Source: Corallococcus exiguus | GTDB lineage: Bacteria > Myxococcota > Myxococcia > Myxococcales > Myxococcaceae | Direction: 5' to 3' (one strand) | Assembly (NCBI RefSeq): GCF_051058965.1 | Contig: NZ_CP183924.1 | Length of the DNA stretch: 64,000 nt | Shown here: piece by piece, positions 31,133 to 48,283 of the stretch | How positions within the stretch are numbered: the first letter of the stretch is position 1 | Layout: each line of letters starts with the position of its first letter | Notes under the pieces: generated by a model | Databases searched by the model: none | Told to the model about the DNA's origin: nothing | Seen by the model: only the letters and a program-made list of their open reading frames with translations | Made by a program: the position numbers and the translations under genes

Positions 31133-32854
31133 CTAGCAGTCCACCGGGCCTTTCAGGCTGGTCACGGTGGCTTCGATTTCTTCACACCCGCCCAGGGTTT
31201 TCGCCCCGTGGGCCGCCAGCTTGATGCCCAGCACGTCCCCCACCACCACGTCCGCCGTGGAGCGCACCACGACGCCGTCCCGCTGGCGGAACGTCACCGC
31301 GTAGCCGCGAGACATCACCTTCAAGGGGCTCAGGGCGTCCAGGCGGCCCCCCAACCGTCCGAAGTGCGTCTGCGCGGTCGCCAGCATGCCCCGCTGCAGC
31401 TCCAGAAGCCGCGAGCGCGCCTGGGCCACCTTCGCCCGCTCGGCCGCCACCCGCGCCGTGGGGGATTGCCGCTCCAGCCCCAGCCGTGCGTCCGCCAGCG
31501 CGCCCCGCCGACGGGTGACGCCCGCTCGCGCCGCTTCCGACAGGCGCATGGCCAGCTTGAGCAGGTGGGCCCGCTGTTCCGACAGCCGCGTCTGGGGCCG
31601 CGCCCGCTGCAGCCGCTCCTGCAGGGCGCGCAAGGTCTCCCGGTGCTCGCGCGCGCGAGGGCGCAGCACGCGCATCATCGCCTCCACCTGTTCGGACAGG
31701 TGCAGGCGCTGATGGTTCACCTCGCGGCGAGGGTCCGGCAGCCGCGCGCGAAGCTGGCCCTGGCGCTCGCGCAGTTCCAGCACCCGGCGCTCCATGGCCC
31801 GGCGCAGCCGGCCGGACTGCGTGGCCAGCGTCAGCTCCAGGTCCGCCAGCACCGGCGCCAGCCGCTCCGCCGCCGCGCTGGGAGTGGGCGCGCGCAGGTC
31901 CGCGACGAAGTCCGAAATGGTGAAGTCGATTTCGTGGCCGATGGCGGACACCACCGGCACCGGCGAGGCGAAGATGGCGCGCGCCACCCGCTCCTCGTTG
32001 AACGTCCAGAGGTCCTCCACGGAGCCTCCGCCGCGCGTCACGACGATGACGTCCACGTCGGTGCGCGAAAGCCGCTCGATGGCCCGCGCCACGTCCTCCG
32101 CGGCGCCCTCGCCCTGCACGCGCGCGTCCGCCAGCAGCACGCCCAGCCGGGGGTTGCGCGAGTGCAGCACGCGCAGGAAGTCCTGGAGCGCCGCGCCGGT
32201 GCGGCTGGTGACGACGCCGATGCGCCGGGGCAGGAACGGCACGGGCCGGGGCGGCCTCACGCGCCGGTCCCCGATGAGCCCCTCCGCCGCCAGCCGCTGC
32301 TTGAGCTGCTCGAACGCGAGCGCCAGCGCGCCCTCGCCCACCGGCTCCAGCCGGGACACGATGAGGCTGTAGCGGCCCTGCGGCTCGTACAGGTCCACGC
32401 TGCCCTCGGCCACCACCTCCATGCCGTCGCGCAGCGCGAAGCGGATCCGCCCCGCCATGGACGCCCACACCTTCGCGTCGATGGAGGCGTCCGCGTCCTT
32501 GAGCGTGAAGTACCAGTGGCCGCGCGCGTTGGCGCCCCGGAAGCTGGACACCTCACCGCGCACCATCACGCGCGGGAAGCGCGTCTCCACCGTCTGCTTG
32601 ATCTGCCGGGTGAGCTCGCCCACCGACAACACCGTGCGCTCCGGGCGCGGCGGCGGAGTGACGGCGGCAGGGGGCGGCGCGGCGATTTCAGCCACCGGCG
32701 CGGGCGAATGAGCCGGGGGAGCCGGAGGCGTCTTGCCTCCGCTGGCGGCCTTCGCGGGCGCGGGACGCAAGGGGGGTAGCAGCGACGTGCCGAACAGGTC
32801 GCCCTGCCCCGGCTCTTCGGCCGGGGGCGGCTCCAGCCCCTTGCGCTTCTTCAT
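31133..32854 (-). CDS. xseA: Exodeoxyribonuclease VII large subunit with an ~85-aa Pro/Ala-rich N-terminal extension.
   Basis: ATG 32854 overlaps the stop of the upstream FHA gene (ATGA). Canonical XseA sequence begins LSVGELTRQIKQTVETRFPRVMVRGEVSSFRGANARGHWYFTLKD. The 5' part of ORF 31133..33385 is junk. Confidence 0.85.
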   Translation of the reverse strand: MKKRKGLEPPPAEEPGQGDLFGTSLLPPLRPAPAKAASGGKTPPAPPAHSPAPVAEIAAPPPAAVTPPPRPERTVLSVGELTRQIKQTVETRFPRVMVRGEVSSFRGANARGHWYFTLKDADASIDAKVWASMAGRIRFALRDGMEVVAEGSVDLYEPQGRYSLIVSRLEPVGEGALALAFEQLKQRLAAEGLIGDRRVRPPRPVPFLPRRIGVVTSRTGAALQDFLRVLHSRNPRLGVLLADARVQGEGAAEDVARAIERLSRTDVDVIVVTRGGGSVEDLWTFNEERVARAIFASPVPVVSAIGHEIDFTISDFVADLRAPTPSAAAERLAPVLADLELTLATQSGRLRRAMERRVLELRERQGQLRARLPDPRREVNHQRLHLSEQVEAMMRVLRPRAREHRETLRALQERLQRARPQTRLSEQRAHLLKLAMRLSEAARAGVTRRRGALADARLGLERQSPTARVAAERAKVAQARSRLLELQRGMLATAQTHFGRLGGRLDALSPLKVMSRGYAVTFRQRDGVVVRSTADVVVGDVLGIKLAAHGAKTLGGCEEIEATVTSLKGPVDC

Positions 32855-47452: not shown

Positions 47453-48283
47453 TCAGGAACCCGGCGCGGGGGGCGGCTGGGACACCGCCCCCTCCGAGCG
47501 GACCTCCTGGCCCCGCGCGTCGACGTCCACCACCTTCGCCCCTTGGGGCGCGCCCAGTTCGTAGAGCGTCAGGTCCGGGCGGCCATTGAGGCGGATGTCC
47601 GTGTACTTCAGGTCCAGCTTCGTGCCCGCCGTGGCGGCGATGAGGTGCACCTTGCCCGGGAAGAACTGGTCGCCCCGCTGCTGGAAGTCCTCGAACGCCA
47701 GGTCGTAGCCCGGCACGCCCCGGACCTCGCTCTTCACCACGCGCAGGTGCTTGGGATCCACGCGCAGTGTCTGCGTCGCGGGCCCCCGCTGGAGCTTGAG
47801 CACGTACACCCGCTCCTTCTCGTCCAGCTCCAGGGTCATGGACTCCGGCGGCAGGAGGGGGACCTGCCCCAGCATCACCGCCACCAGCTCCTCGCTCGGC
47901 AGGACGACAGGAAGGAAGCGGGACACGTTCTCCGCGCTCGCTGGGCCCTGGAGGTACGTGTTCTCCCCCGCCTGGTAGACGCCAAAGCGTTCGCCGTCGG
48001 AGACGAGCGAGGCCACCGGGCGGTTGAAGAAGTCGTACGTCTCCAGGTGGATGAGGGCCGGACGGGTGATGGAGAGATACGTGGAGAGCGTTCCACTGCC
48101 CTGGGGCGAGTCCACGTGCAGCTTGGCGTCACCCTCCAGGGTCACCACCTTCGCCTGCCGCTCGCGCACGTGCTGGTAGAGCGTCTGGGCGTCCTCGATG
48201 CGGCCCTCCGGACCGAACTCGAGACGTTTGGGGCAGGCCGAACAGAGGAGGGCCAGGAAGATTGCGGCGGCTGCGCGGTTCAT
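47453..48283 (-). CDS. Lipoprotein, LolA/LolB-like (DUF4292-like) fold candidate.
   Basis: Lipobox FLALLCSAC. Family assignment is low confidence. Confidence 0.6.
   Translation of the reverse strand: MNRAAAAIFLALLCSACPKRLEFGPEGRIEDAQTLYQHVRERQAKVVTLEGDAKLHVDSPQGSGTLSTYLSITRPALIHLETYDFFNRPVASLVSDGERFGVYQAGENTYLQGPASAENVSRFLPVVLPSEELVAVMLGQVPLLPPESMTLELDEKERVYVLKLQRGPATQTLRVDPKHLRVVKSEVRGVPGYDLAFEDFQQRGDQFFPGKVHLIAATAGTKLDLKYTDIRLNGRPDLTLYELGAPQGAKVVDVDARGQEVRSEGAVSQPPPAPGS

Follow-up and report, generated by a model that had tools for sequence, protein, structure and literature searches.

Kil gene cluster II of Corallococcus: a probable orthologue of the Myxococcus xanthus predation locus in a trimmed form without Tip4

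Among predatory myxobacteria, the Kil system is the main weapon for killing on contact. In Myxococcus xanthus, its parts assemble at the contact site when prey is met and polymerise a KilP pilus, for which a minor-pilin Tip acts as primer; prey death is the result (PMC8460266, PMC12075869). Its positioning and triggering are still called unknown in the 2026 literature. Kil gene cluster II of M. xanthus has been described by Seef et al. 2021 (eLife, PMC8460266) and Herrou et al. 2025 (Nat Commun, PMC12075869). It comprises MXAN_4648-4661 and runs from an FHA-TPR gene to an anti-sigma gene, as annotated gene by gene (Seef 2021, Supplementary file 1). The ATPase KilF, the secretin KilC, the peptidase KilA and KilD belong to cluster I, and the major pilin KilP and other tip complexes are encoded elsewhere in the genome. 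KilK has been characterized as the adapter for Tip1 and Tip2, both of which are encoded outside cluster II (PMC12075869).

A related locus is present in the 64-kb stretch of Corallococcus DNA analysed here (the window), which is 99% identical to two public assemblies. Fourteen co-directional genes occupy the minus strand at 32851-48283, as found by GC3-based gene calling and translation, and independent calls on public contigs 95-99% identical to the window gave the identical set, in agreement with a preliminary description of this DNA. With a probability of roughly 0.85, the locus is orthologous to kil gene cluster II of M. xanthus, that is, a known system in a trimmed form without one pilus tip module, and not a new machine. 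Seven of the fourteen genes correspond to cluster II:

32851-34599, minus strand: FHA-TPR gene for a 582-aa bitopic protein, orthologue of MXAN_4648 (Pfam FHA 2.6e-18, weak TPR matches; 57% full-length identity to M. xanthus)
34627-37824, minus strand: FHA protein, orthologue of MXAN_4649, 1065 aa from CTG 37824 or 1042 aa from GTG 37755 (Pfam FHA; about 57% identity to M. xanthus)
37829-38719, minus strand: KilH, TadC/CpaH-type inner-membrane platform protein, 296 aa (Pfam T2SSF 1.8e-18; 82% to M. xanthus)
38733-39578, minus strand: KilG, TadB/CpaG-type inner-membrane platform protein, 281 aa (Pfam T2SSF 4.3e-17; 95% to M. xanthus)
39657-40475, minus strand: KilB (CpaB/RcpC), 272 aa, with an N-terminal TM anchor (Pfam RcpC 7.1e-23 and SAF; 92% to M. 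xanthus)
40708-40968, minus strand: KilK, Flp-type minor (adapter) pilin, 86 aa, with leader and G/QAMVEY (76% to M. xanthus KilK; motif; hydrophobic helix)
41029-42459, minus strand: transmembrane ZAS-type anti-sigma, 476 aa, orthologue of MXAN_4661 (Pfam zf-HC2 3.5e-5)

The other seven, beyond the published cluster, encode an ECF sigma factor, a DUF2085 protein, OppF- and OppD-type ATPases, two MshEN proteins and a LolB-like lipoprotein. KilH, KilG and KilB are encoded side by side in the same order as in M. xanthus AM003 (locus L037), the reference for their identities given above. Both FHA genes lie directly downstream of kilH and are succeeded by xseA in the Corallococcus and M. xanthus loci alike. 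At the upstream end, the zinc-finger gene gives a tblastn match to the anti-sigma of the M. xanthus clade and shares its position, and an ECF sigma gene follows upstream in both. Seven genes, their order and their surroundings are common to the two loci, at 57-95% identity, as is a sigma-70-type promoter upstream of kilB. KilG, KilH and KilB are 92-100% conserved among 18 Corallococcus-type loci, and KilB identity reaches 97-100% in named Corallococcus species and at least 75% in all 80 related loci. The earlier suggestion of a counterpart of the second Kil cluster is upheld by this order and identity, and its expected bacNOP-padC neighbourhood by bacNOP and a PadC-like gene found nearby inside the window. 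The equation of the fourteen genes with MXAN_4648-4661, in contrast, was a coincidence of counts. The published span contains only seven genes here because seven others, including those of Tip4 (KilL4/N4/M4), are absent.

In M. xanthus, eight genes are found between kilB and the anti-sigma gene, among them those of the Tip4 minor pilins KilL4, KilN4 and KilM4, whereas kilK is the sole gene left there in Corallococcus; MXAN_4653, MXAN_4654, MXAN_4656 and MXAN_4657 are missing together with the three tip genes. The gap measures 545-647 bp in Corallococcus-type loci, with a single outlier of 1094 bp, and 7.1-9.8 kb in Myxococcus, Pyxidicoccus, Citreicoccus, Hyalangium, Archangium, Cystobacter and Vitiosangium. 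KilL4, KilN4 and KilM4 had no tblastn match in any Corallococcus-type locus, the window included. KilN4 homologues were surveyed by named matches, about one quarter of the database proteins bearing names, and no protein of Corallococcus sensu stricto appeared among those in the best 120 (all at least 44% identical, with 96 weaker ones beyond). The promoter-like element and ATG of kilM4 survive in front of Corallococcus kilK. These comparisons show the loss of seven cluster genes in Corallococcus, namely Tip4 and four more, and the retention of kilK through two flanking deletions; it is now joined to the promoter-like element and start codon that once belonged to kilM4. KilK may have been kept because it adapts tips encoded elsewhere. 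The product carries G27/QAMVEY and is called as 86 aa on public contigs. The start is most likely ATG 40968, giving 86 rather than 100 aa, since the upstream ATG sits within the conserved promoter-like element. The preliminary assignment as a Flp-like pilin stands on the motif and the identity to KilK; the protein has no match in Pfam or NCBIfam.

Pfam matches comprise T2SSF in two proteins, RcpC and SAF (CpaB) in one, FHA and Yop-YscD_cpl in both large proteins, ABC_tran with oligo_HPY in two and MshEN in two, as well as zf-HC2, Sigma70_r2/r4 (ECF), DUF2085 and DUF4292; Pfam and NCBIfam agree with the TadB, TadC, CpaB, FHA, ECF sigma and zinc-finger assignments made previously. As in the Caulobacter cpa and Aggregatibacter tad loci, a TadB/TadC-type platform pair, CpaB/RcpC and a Flp-type prepilin with G/XXXXEY are all present, according to Pfam and the Flp motif. 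In contrast to those loci, the Corallococcus one lacks the ATPase, secretin, TadZ/CpaE, peptidase and TadD/RcpB, its Flp protein is a minor adapter pilin instead of the major pilin, and two FHA transmembrane proteins and an adjacent ECF/anti-sigma pair are added. As first described, CpaF, secretin, CpaE and prepilin peptidase domains occur in none of the called genes of the window (the scan did not include gene-less stretches at about 5.3-7.2, 21.5-22.3 and 55.2-57.4 kb), and the canonical pairing of a TadA/CpaF ATPase with an RcpA/CpaC secretin was not found among these genes either. The expectation that such parts are encoded elsewhere agrees with the gene listings of complete Corallococcus genomes. 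KilA, KilC, KilF and KilD are listed about 80 genes from KilHGB in two of them (Herrou 2025 Supplementary Data 1), compared with a distance of about 1500 genes between clusters I and II in M. xanthus. According to the same source, Corallococcus genomes still have KilP, Tip1 and, of Tip2, at least KilM2, besides cluster I.

Two other readings of this gene content have to be considered. The presence of TadB, TadC, CpaB and a Flp-like gene would suit an ordinary Flp/Tad adhesion pilus locus with the ATPase, secretin, CpaE and peptidase just beyond the window, but this is scarcely credible. It is contradicted by the high-identity orthology to the experimentally defined Kil cluster II, by the distance of KilA/C/F/D and by the flanks, where xseA and housekeeping genes border one end and exbBD and an acyl-CoA dehydrogenase gene the other; the missing parts, moreover, are in no called gene of the 64 kb. 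It is also very improbable that the loss of Tip4 and four further genes marks a decaying Kil cluster on its way out of Corallococcus. Half of the fourteen reference genes are indeed missing and the FHA gene call is broken in one assembly (L004), yet every remaining ORF is intact, KilG, KilH and KilB are conserved throughout the 18 loci, and both promoter-like elements are retained. The survival of kilK between two deletions with a start signal, its role for Tip1 and Tip2, and the maintenance of the Kil genes elsewhere in the genome likewise argue against decay.

The two FHA proteins each possess a single hydrophobic segment. The 582-aa protein consists of a disordered N-terminus, the FHA domain, one TM segment (199-217) and a helical/TPR-like C-terminal part, and the stop codon of its gene overlaps the xseA start. 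It has the GR...SRKH...NGT signature, and its nearest solved relatives are the pThr-binding FHA proteins GarA/OdhI. Judged by signature residues, the canonical pThr-binding positions are present in both FHA domains. In the MXAN_4649 orthologue, the FHA domain is followed by a Pro/Ala-rich linker of about 650-690 aa, a TM segment (790-808), a periplasmic jelly roll and a TPR-like helical bundle. Its length of 1042 aa in the preliminary description had to be revised, while the FHA domain stands: in that form the FHA fold is incomplete without an N-terminal extension, for which no ATG, GTG or TTG start is available. CTG 37824, located 5 nt past the stop codon of kilH, recurs in all Corallococcus-type loci that span the junction, with GTG in Myxococcus, and appears to be the start of a 1065-aa protein. 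Orthologues measure about 450-530 aa in the named genera (Myxococcus about 484) and 1026-1064 aa in Corallococcus, the only genus with the form of about 1040-1065 aa. The giant size is a Corallococcus-specific expansion, in which a disordered cytoplasmic Pro/Ala linker has doubled the protein, and the idea of a machine built around two giant FHA proteins does not hold beyond this genus.

The arrangement of a cytoplasmic FHA domain, a single TM segment and a domain in the periplasm is shared with SctD (YscD/PrgH) of the T3SS and with GltG/GltJ of the M. xanthus gliding machine, and a cytoplasmic FHA domain with TagH/Fha of the T6SS. Profiles of GltG, TagH and the cytoplasmic domain of YscD match the Corallococcus proteins through the FHA part, with NCBIfam scores far under the family cut-offs. 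In AF2 models (pLDDT 91.5 and 88.5), the periplasmic part of the MXAN_4649 orthologue is predicted as a CBM-like jelly roll plus TPR-like bundle, unlike the SctD ring; the ring-building motifs (alpha-beta-beta-alpha-beta) that follow FHA and TM in SctD are absent from the modelled part. A distant MXAN_4649-family homologue (37% identity) does not adjoin tad genes.

Several putative transcription signals accompany the locus, together with the sigma gene:

40566-40595, minus strand: sigma-70-type promoter-like site TTGACA-N18-TAACAT upstream of kilB (10/12 matches)
40975-41009, minus strand: conserved bipartite element TGACCGATGC-N19-GATAAT, 6 nt ahead of the kilK ATG
42456-43103, minus strand: ECF sigma factor, 215 aa (Pfam Sigma70_r2/r4_2; NCBIfam NF009166, 266.6 bits against a cut-off of 206)
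43144-43170, minus strand: ECF-like motif TAGACC-N17-CGTT, whose 3' end lies 41 nt before the start codon of the sigma gene (first base about 60 nt)

The site before kilB is the only one of its type in 32-49 kb (shuffles average 0.4), and TTTTGACAC...TAACATC is kept in 24 aligned sequences (the window and 23 loci), regardless of the preceding gene. The kilK element is homologous to the one preceding kilM4 in other genera. It fits no standard sigma spacing, so kilK could depend on the ECF factor. The ECF-like motif has a single match in 64 kb (0.07 expected); in the form TAGAyC-N16/17-CGTT it occurs once per locus before the sigma gene in the 17 tabulated loci including sigma-upstream DNA, with TAAAAC as first hexamer in L084, and no copy precedes any kil gene in the window or the compared loci. 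The sigma factor contains regions 2 and 4 only, and its gene overlaps by 4 nt that of the anti-sigma. The latter contains H32xxxCxxC (H32VQGCARC), one hydrophobic segment at 94-112, which agrees with the TM helix proposed before, and a long low-complexity extracytoplasmic part; NCBIfam anti-sigma and ChrR-family models match under their cut-offs. SigR-RsrA and RpoE-ChrR similarly combine a two-domain ECF sigma, an overlapping anti-sigma with an N-terminal HxxxCxxC and an ECF-like motif upstream of sigma. The Corallococcus anti-sigma differs from theirs in spanning the membrane and carrying about 360 extracytoplasmic residues, mostly of low complexity, and in the lack of a matching motif before the kil genes. 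From their consensus-like motifs, kilB-kilG-kilH-FHA-FHA would have a strictly conserved sigma-70-type promoter of their own. Control of the Kil machine by the ECF pair, under which it had been placed, is not supported by these motifs, because the platform genes have this promoter, kilK has a separate element and the ECF-like motif precedes only the sigma gene.

Of the Tad-like machine that builds the Kil predation pilus, cluster II would encode the half located in the inner membrane and periplasm: the platform pair KilG/KilH, KilB as the periplasmic connector, KilK as the adapter minor pilin and two bitopic FHA proteins. These last might serve as transmembrane scaffolds through which an anchor or signal in the periplasm, perhaps a glycan such as peptidoglycan, is coupled to the recruitment of cytoplasmic Kil parts in a phospho-threonine-dependent manner. 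Three or more separate signals for transcription may operate: an ECF-like, autoregulated one for sigma and anti-sigma, the distinct kilK element, and the sigma-70-type promoter, whose transcript kilB-kilG-kilH-FHA-FHA would read on into xseA. With three such signals, the ECF pair is regarded as a conserved neighbour and not as a demonstrated master of the machine. Kil cluster II is already known from M. xanthus; Corallococcus adds the Tip4 loss, the kilK fusion and the long FHA linker. As a natural Tip4-less lineage, Corallococcus is predicted to kill in a manner that depends entirely on the T3SS-linked tips. Experimental handles are provided by the distinct conserved promoter elements of the platform operon, pilin gene and sigma gene, by the intact predicted pThr-binding FHA domains, by the lineage-specific disordered linker, and by the confidently modelled periplasmic jelly roll and TPR-like module of the MXAN_4649 family.

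Upstream of the sigma gene, the adjacent genes are the following:

43168-43575, minus strand: DUF2085 membrane protein, 135 aa, candidate member only (Pfam DUF2085 4.9e-10)
43544-45627, minus strand: OppF-like (43544-44599) and OppD-like (44596-45627) ABC ATPases, candidate members only (Pfam ABC_tran and oligo_HPY)
45624-47393, minus strand: two stand-alone MshEN proteins of 336 aa (45624-46634) and 249 aa (46644-47393), candidate members only (Pfam MshEN)
47453-48283, minus strand: DUF4292/LolB-like lipoprotein with lipobox LCSAC (Pfam DUF4292 6.4e-15; NCBIfam LolB1_Flavo 47.9 against a cut-off of 50 bits)

The DUF2085 gene overlaps the oppF-like gene by 32 nt. The ATPases reach 411 bits with the NCBIfam dipeptide ABC ATPase model (cut-off 408), and no permease or binding protein is encoded nearby. 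MshEN domains are known for tandem 24-residue RLGxx(L/V/I)(L/V/I)xxG...LxxxLxxQ motifs (PMC5013675). Both MshEN proteins exceed the cut-off of 38 bits of the NCBIfam c-di-GMP_motif model NF053729 (61.7 and 64.8 bits) and are predicted to bind c-di-GMP. Compared by eye with that motif, all four copies have Lys instead of the first Arg; the two copies of the 249-aa protein also have Asn instead of the turn Gly, and in the 336-aa protein Gly takes the place of one terminal Gln. The lipoprotein, previously called LolA/B-like, does come near the LolB1 model, with a score just under the cut-off, but its family is DUF4292, and it is probably a housekeeping protein.

All fourteen genes might form one functional unit, in which the upstream seven and the anti-sigma would be devoted to controlling or energising the Kil machine or to trafficking for it. 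Strand and order are shared by every related locus long enough, including distant MAGs (KilB 75-78% identity), the stop and start codons of the 336-aa MshEN, OppD, OppF and DUF2085 genes overlap, both MshEN proteins clear the c-di-GMP motif model, and Bdellovibrio predatory Tad loci too adjoin FHA, TPR and c-di-GMP-binding proteins. Nevertheless, such a unit is unlikely. Housekeeping xseA-xseB are equally syntenic, xseA even being coupled by a 4-nt overlap, so that synteny inside the clade has no power to discriminate. Conserved promoters of their own precede the kil genes, and the ECF-like motif is confined to the sigma gene. The upstream genes are outside the mutant-defined cluster (Seef 2021, Supplementary file 1), and MXAN_4662, MXAN_4666 and MXAN_4667 are without mention in the literature searched. 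M. xanthus has 17-22 MshEN proteins, and DUF4292 resembles the general lipoprotein insertase LolB. It is likewise doubtful that the ZAS anti-sigma/ECF sigma, DUF2085, orphan OppD/F-type ATPases, MshEN pair and LolB-like lipoprotein constitute a dedicated Kil sensing and control module. In such a module, the N-terminal c-di-GMP sensor domain missing from the FHA-fused ATPase KilF could be provided in trans by the MshEN proteins, and the anti-sigma could report envelope perturbation upon prey contact; second-messenger and envelope signalling would then be tied to contact-dependent killing. The ABC ATPases, MshEN proteins and lipoprotein had been taken as machine parts, for which inherited synteny is the sole tie. 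In the orthologue of cluster II proposed here, the LolB-like, MshEN, OppDF and DUF2085 genes would be conserved neighbours of the kil cluster. The boundaries of the locus are corrected accordingly: half of the fourteen genes are neighbours and candidate members at most.

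The G+C content of the window is about 70%, which makes ORF lists noisy, and ORFs were therefore picked by third-position GC. This selection returned the 14 co-directional minus-strand genes at 32851-48283 that a preliminary description of this DNA had proposed, and all of its domain calls were supported by Pfam.

Pfam domains of the proteins encoded at 32851-48283 (-)
FHA + Yop-YscD_cpl: the 582-aa protein and the ~1042-aa protein
T2SSF: two proteins
RcpC + SAF: one protein (KilB)
zf-HC2: the anti-sigma factor
Sigma70_r2/r4: the ECF sigma factor
DUF2085: one protein
ABC_tran + oligo_HPY: two proteins
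MshEN: two proteins
DUF4292: one protein

The sigma factor also scores above the cut-off of the ECF-type equivalog model of NCBIfam. A single hydrophobic segment occurs in each FHA protein and in the anti-sigma factor, which carries HxxxCxxC. The Flp-like gene (kilK) gave zero profile matches in Pfam and NCBIfam; a leader, the G/QAMVEY motif and a hydrophobic helix are recognisable in its product. Domains of a CpaF-type ATPase, a secretin, CpaE or a prepilin peptidase were absent from all genes called in the 64-kb window.

The KilB-like protein is found with identical sequence on at least 23 public contigs, to two of which the window DNA is 99.1-99.6% identical, and KilB identity is 97-100% in named Corallococcus species when one genome is scanned for each species. 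Identity to the locus of M. xanthus AM003 (L037) is 95% for KilG, 82% for KilH, 92% for KilB, 76% for KilK and ~57% for both FHA proteins. Gene order is common to both loci, and xseA comes next in each. The bacNOP-padC genes, named in the preliminary description as neighbours of the Kil cluster, are also close by: bacN, bacO, bacP and a ParB_N (PadC-like) gene lie 14-15 kb away.

17217-17933, minus strand: bacP
17934-18320, minus strand: bacO
18321-18710, minus strand: bacN

The three bac genes and the PadC-like gene share 15830-21469 (-), 11-17 kb downstream of the kil genes, with genes encoding an alpha/beta hydrolase and a TPR protein of 634 aa; this stretch corresponds to the bacNOP-padC neighbourhood known from M. 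xanthus. The orthologue identities (57-95%), the conserved order, xseA and these nearby genes make the proposed identification with the second Kil cluster of M. xanthus sound; the locus is real and was correctly recognised as this cluster of a known system. What is new is a Corallococcus variant without Tip4 and with an enlarged FHA linker. In one related locus (L006; GCA_012985245.1, JABELA010000158.1), the Pro-rich tail of bacP runs straight into the Pro-rich linker of the gene for the 336-aa MshEN protein, which places a chimeric "bactofilin" ORF ahead of oppD. The corresponding regions of the window (~17350 and ~45924) have only a 19-nt stretch in common (95% match), so that short-read misassembly is the most likely cause.

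In M. xanthus, the cluster has been annotated as MXAN_4648 (FHA and TPR), 4649 (FHA), 4650 (KilH), 4651 (KilG), 4652 (KilB), 4653 and 4654 (unknown), 4655 (KilK), 4656 and 4657 (unknown), 4658 (KilL), 4659 (TadG-like), 4660 (KilM) and 4661 (zinc finger) (Seef 2021, PMC8460266). The equation of the 14 window genes with MXAN_4648-4661 has to be given up: the published cluster stops at the anti-sigma gene and comprises seven genes here, the other seven lying beyond it. In a literature search, MXAN_4649, 4661, 4662, 4666 and 4667 were named in no main text; MXAN_4649 and 4661 appeared only in the supplementary annotation table of Seef 2021 (PMC8460266). According to Herrou 2025 (PMC12075869), clusters I and II are separated by ~80 genes in complete Corallococcus genomes vs ~1500 in M. 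xanthus, and the gene indices in two complete Corallococcus genomes (cluster I, 4689-4692 and 4732-4735; cluster II, 4609-4611 and 4645-4647) place them ~80-90 apart.

The loss of Tip4 emerges from a comparison of 80 KilB-centred loci. As far as the contigs extend, all are collinear from xseA to MshEN, in the order xseA, FHA, FHA, kilH, kilG, kilB, a variable segment, anti-sigma, ECF sigma, DUF2085, oppF, oppD, MshEN, MshEN and DUF4292; the DUF4292 and exbBD genes were detected solely in closer relatives. The variable segment between kilB and the anti-sigma gene measures 545-647 bp in Corallococcus-type loci (one outlier, 1094 bp), 7.1-9.8 kb in Myxococcus, Pyxidicoccus, Citreicoccus, Hyalangium, Archangium, Cystobacter and Vitiosangium, and 1.3-1.9 kb in a set of more remote loci, most of them from MAGs and one from a sequenced isolate (one locus, 548 bp). 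The M. xanthus segment holds eight ORFs matching MXAN_4660 to 4653, and tblastn with these ORFs recovered a KilM4-KilN4-KilL4-4657-4656-KilK-4654 cassette in every long-gap genus. In Archangium, Cystobacter and Vitiosangium (L024-L031, L040, L056-L059, L063), the whole cassette is inverted relative to the kilB/anti-sigma backbone and would therefore be a movable unit with its own expression signals.

In Corallococcus, kilK is the only cassette gene kept, as judged by tblastn. Short matches resembling an MXAN_4654 remnant were rejected as an artefact of an over-extended query ORF that overlaps kilK in another frame. Immediately behind the anti-sigma stop, the Corallococcus DNA aligns with the conserved element preceding kilM4 in other genera, TTGACCGATGCG-N19/21-GATAAT-N6-ATG, and the former kilM4 ATG position is the present kilK start. 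The junction bears the mark of a deletion in an ancestor that still had the cassette, a deletion which spared kilK and an expression signal. With M. xanthus KilN4 as the query, a database search gave 216 homologues; the best 120 of the 216 all have at least 44% identity, and Corallococcus sensu stricto is absent among the eight genera named in them ("Corallococcus macrosporus" among the matches is Myxococcus in GTDB). Tip4 is thus probably missing from the genus.

The preliminary description had placed the machine under the control of the ECF sigma/anti-sigma pair, a claim which needs correction, as the cis-elements lend it no support. The ECF sigma gene alone is preceded by an ECF-like motif, TAGAyC-N16/17-CGTT, whose 3' end in the window lies 41 nt before the start codon. 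Searched as TAGAyC-N16-18-CGTT, it matches once in the 64 kb, with 0.07 matches expected, and it is present once, at equal position, in the 17 tabulated loci reaching sigma-upstream DNA (the related locus L084 has a variant first hexamer). It was found in front of no kil gene in the window or the related loci. An ECF-type promoter for the kil genes was rejected, the motif being always upstream of the sigma gene and the kilM4/kilK element being without its downstream half. When the 260 nt preceding kilB were aligned for the window and 23 loci, TTTTGACAC-N17/18-TAACATC proved strictly conserved, whether kilK or MXAN_4653 precedes; it is the sole sigma-70-type match of a consensus scan of 32-49 kb (10/12 positions). 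The kilK element differs from both this promoter-like site and the ECF-like motif. Intergenic distances are short, with several gene overlaps, and the simplest reading is a locus with at least three putative transcription signals. Transcription would be predicted to start a few nt downstream of 40566, at about 40968 (a leaderless kilK transcript) and a short way downstream of 43144. The ECF-like motif is immediately preceded by a block of 23 nt, CCTGTCATTCTCGCnACTTACCG, at 43171-43193 (-), which also occurs in the related loci L057, L058, L025 and L031. It encodes the DUF2085 C-terminus in Corallococcus, is kept as non-coding DNA beside the sigma gene in Archangium and Cystobacter, and persists in two MAGs after a ~700-nt insertion, which suggests a function at the DNA level.

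The emphasis on "giant" FHA proteins also needs correction, since named MXAN_4649 orthologues have 450-530 aa. The C-terminal 303 aa of the Corallococcus orthologue retrieved only 397 clusters among 1.84 billion representative proteins; their members mostly have 450-700 aa, and lengths of ~1020 aa or above are confined to Corallococcus-like members (1026 to 1064 aa in Corallococcus, strain-dependent). The FHA domain and the C-terminal part are shared with other orthologues (57-62% identity), and the linker joining them comprises ~650-690 aa in Corallococcus, with 22% Pro, 20% Ala and internal repeats. The FHA domain is complete only with a translation start upstream of the first GTG, and on the minus strand around 37824 no ATG, GTG or TTG would take in the first FHA strands. 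A CTG at 37824 (-), 5 nt after the kilH stop, is kept in all Corallococcus-type loci spanning the junction (L001-L017, L061); Myxococcus has GTG at this position. The gene would thus have a non-canonical start or be tightly coupled to kilH. A 37%-identity family homologue (P0233) has no tad genes nearby and is uninformative for the window.

The GR...S(R/K)xH...NG(T/S) signature is intact in both FHA domains, and the closest solved relatives of that of the 582-aa protein are the pThr-binding GarA and OdhI. An AlphaFold2 model of residues 740-1042 of the larger protein, built with 68 homologues (mean pLDDT 91.5), gives the predicted fold of its periplasmic module: a TM helix, an eight-stranded beta sandwich and a five-helix bundle. 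A likeness to PrgH/YscD has been noted in the literature and appears as the Pfam match Yop-YscD_cpl. The modelled periplasmic part does not resemble the ring-building domains of SctD, and the likeness would therefore be confined to the FHA domain. Glycan binding by the module is hypothetical, because the fold is common.

At the level of sequence, orthology to the kil genes is evident in the Corallococcus locus, which has lost Tip4 along with four further genes, has an expanded linker and keeps both FHA signatures intact. In M. xanthus, KilG, KilH and KilB are essential for contact-dependent killing and join the proteins of cluster I where prey is contacted. The machine polymerises a Tip-primed KilP pilus with KilK as adapter (PMC8460266, PMC12075869), and KilK is required for Tip1, Tip2 and Tip4 (PMC12075869). 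The spatial determinants of Kil assembly are still unknown according to a 2026 preprint. The two FHA proteins may act as transmembrane scaffolds that connect an anchor or signal in the periplasm with the phospho-threonine-dependent recruitment of Kil parts in the cytoplasm. Corallococcus would kill via Tip1-3 and would therefore depend on the needleless T3SS; its contact killing would be lost entirely without that T3SS, unlike that of M. xanthus, in which Tip4 still kills. The ECF pair may sense an envelope signal.

The genes upstream of the sigma gene are treated here as neighbours of the Kil machine. Translational coupling connects those for the 336-aa MshEN protein, OppD, OppF and DUF2085. 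Both MshEN proteins score above the cut-off of the NCBIfam model for the c-di-GMP motif and are predicted c-di-GMP binders. That they form a dedicated control module seems unlikely: their sole tie to Kil is a conserved position beside the kil genes, which xseA equally shares. Moreover, M. xanthus has 17-22 MshEN proteins, DUF4292, just below the LolB1 cut-off of NCBIfam, resembles the general lipoprotein insertase LolB, and MXAN_4662, 4666 and 4667 are among the genes missing from main texts. At the other end, in the examined loci of Corallococcus and Myxococcus (window 32851-32854; L037 14145-14148), there is a 4-nt overlap between the xseA start and the stop of the last FHA gene. Behind xseA, and on its strand, come xseB, a response regulator gene, ispA and dxs; the end of the kil operon thus appears coupled to housekeeping genes.

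Other genes in the vicinity include an exbB/exbD (TolQ/TolR-like) pair at 48326-49528 (+), divergent from the DUF4292 gene with ~42 nt between start codons, and a response regulator-HD-GYP-type (HD_5) fusion at 54030-55196 (+), ~6 kb from both MshEN genes, which is likely a c-di-GMP phosphodiesterase. In some MAGs (loci L060, L072, L075, L079 and L081), a second KilB-like gene (76-80% identity) stands as an orphan, apart from kilG/kilH; that of L060 adjoins genes for a further ECF sigma factor and a Ser/Thr protein kinase.
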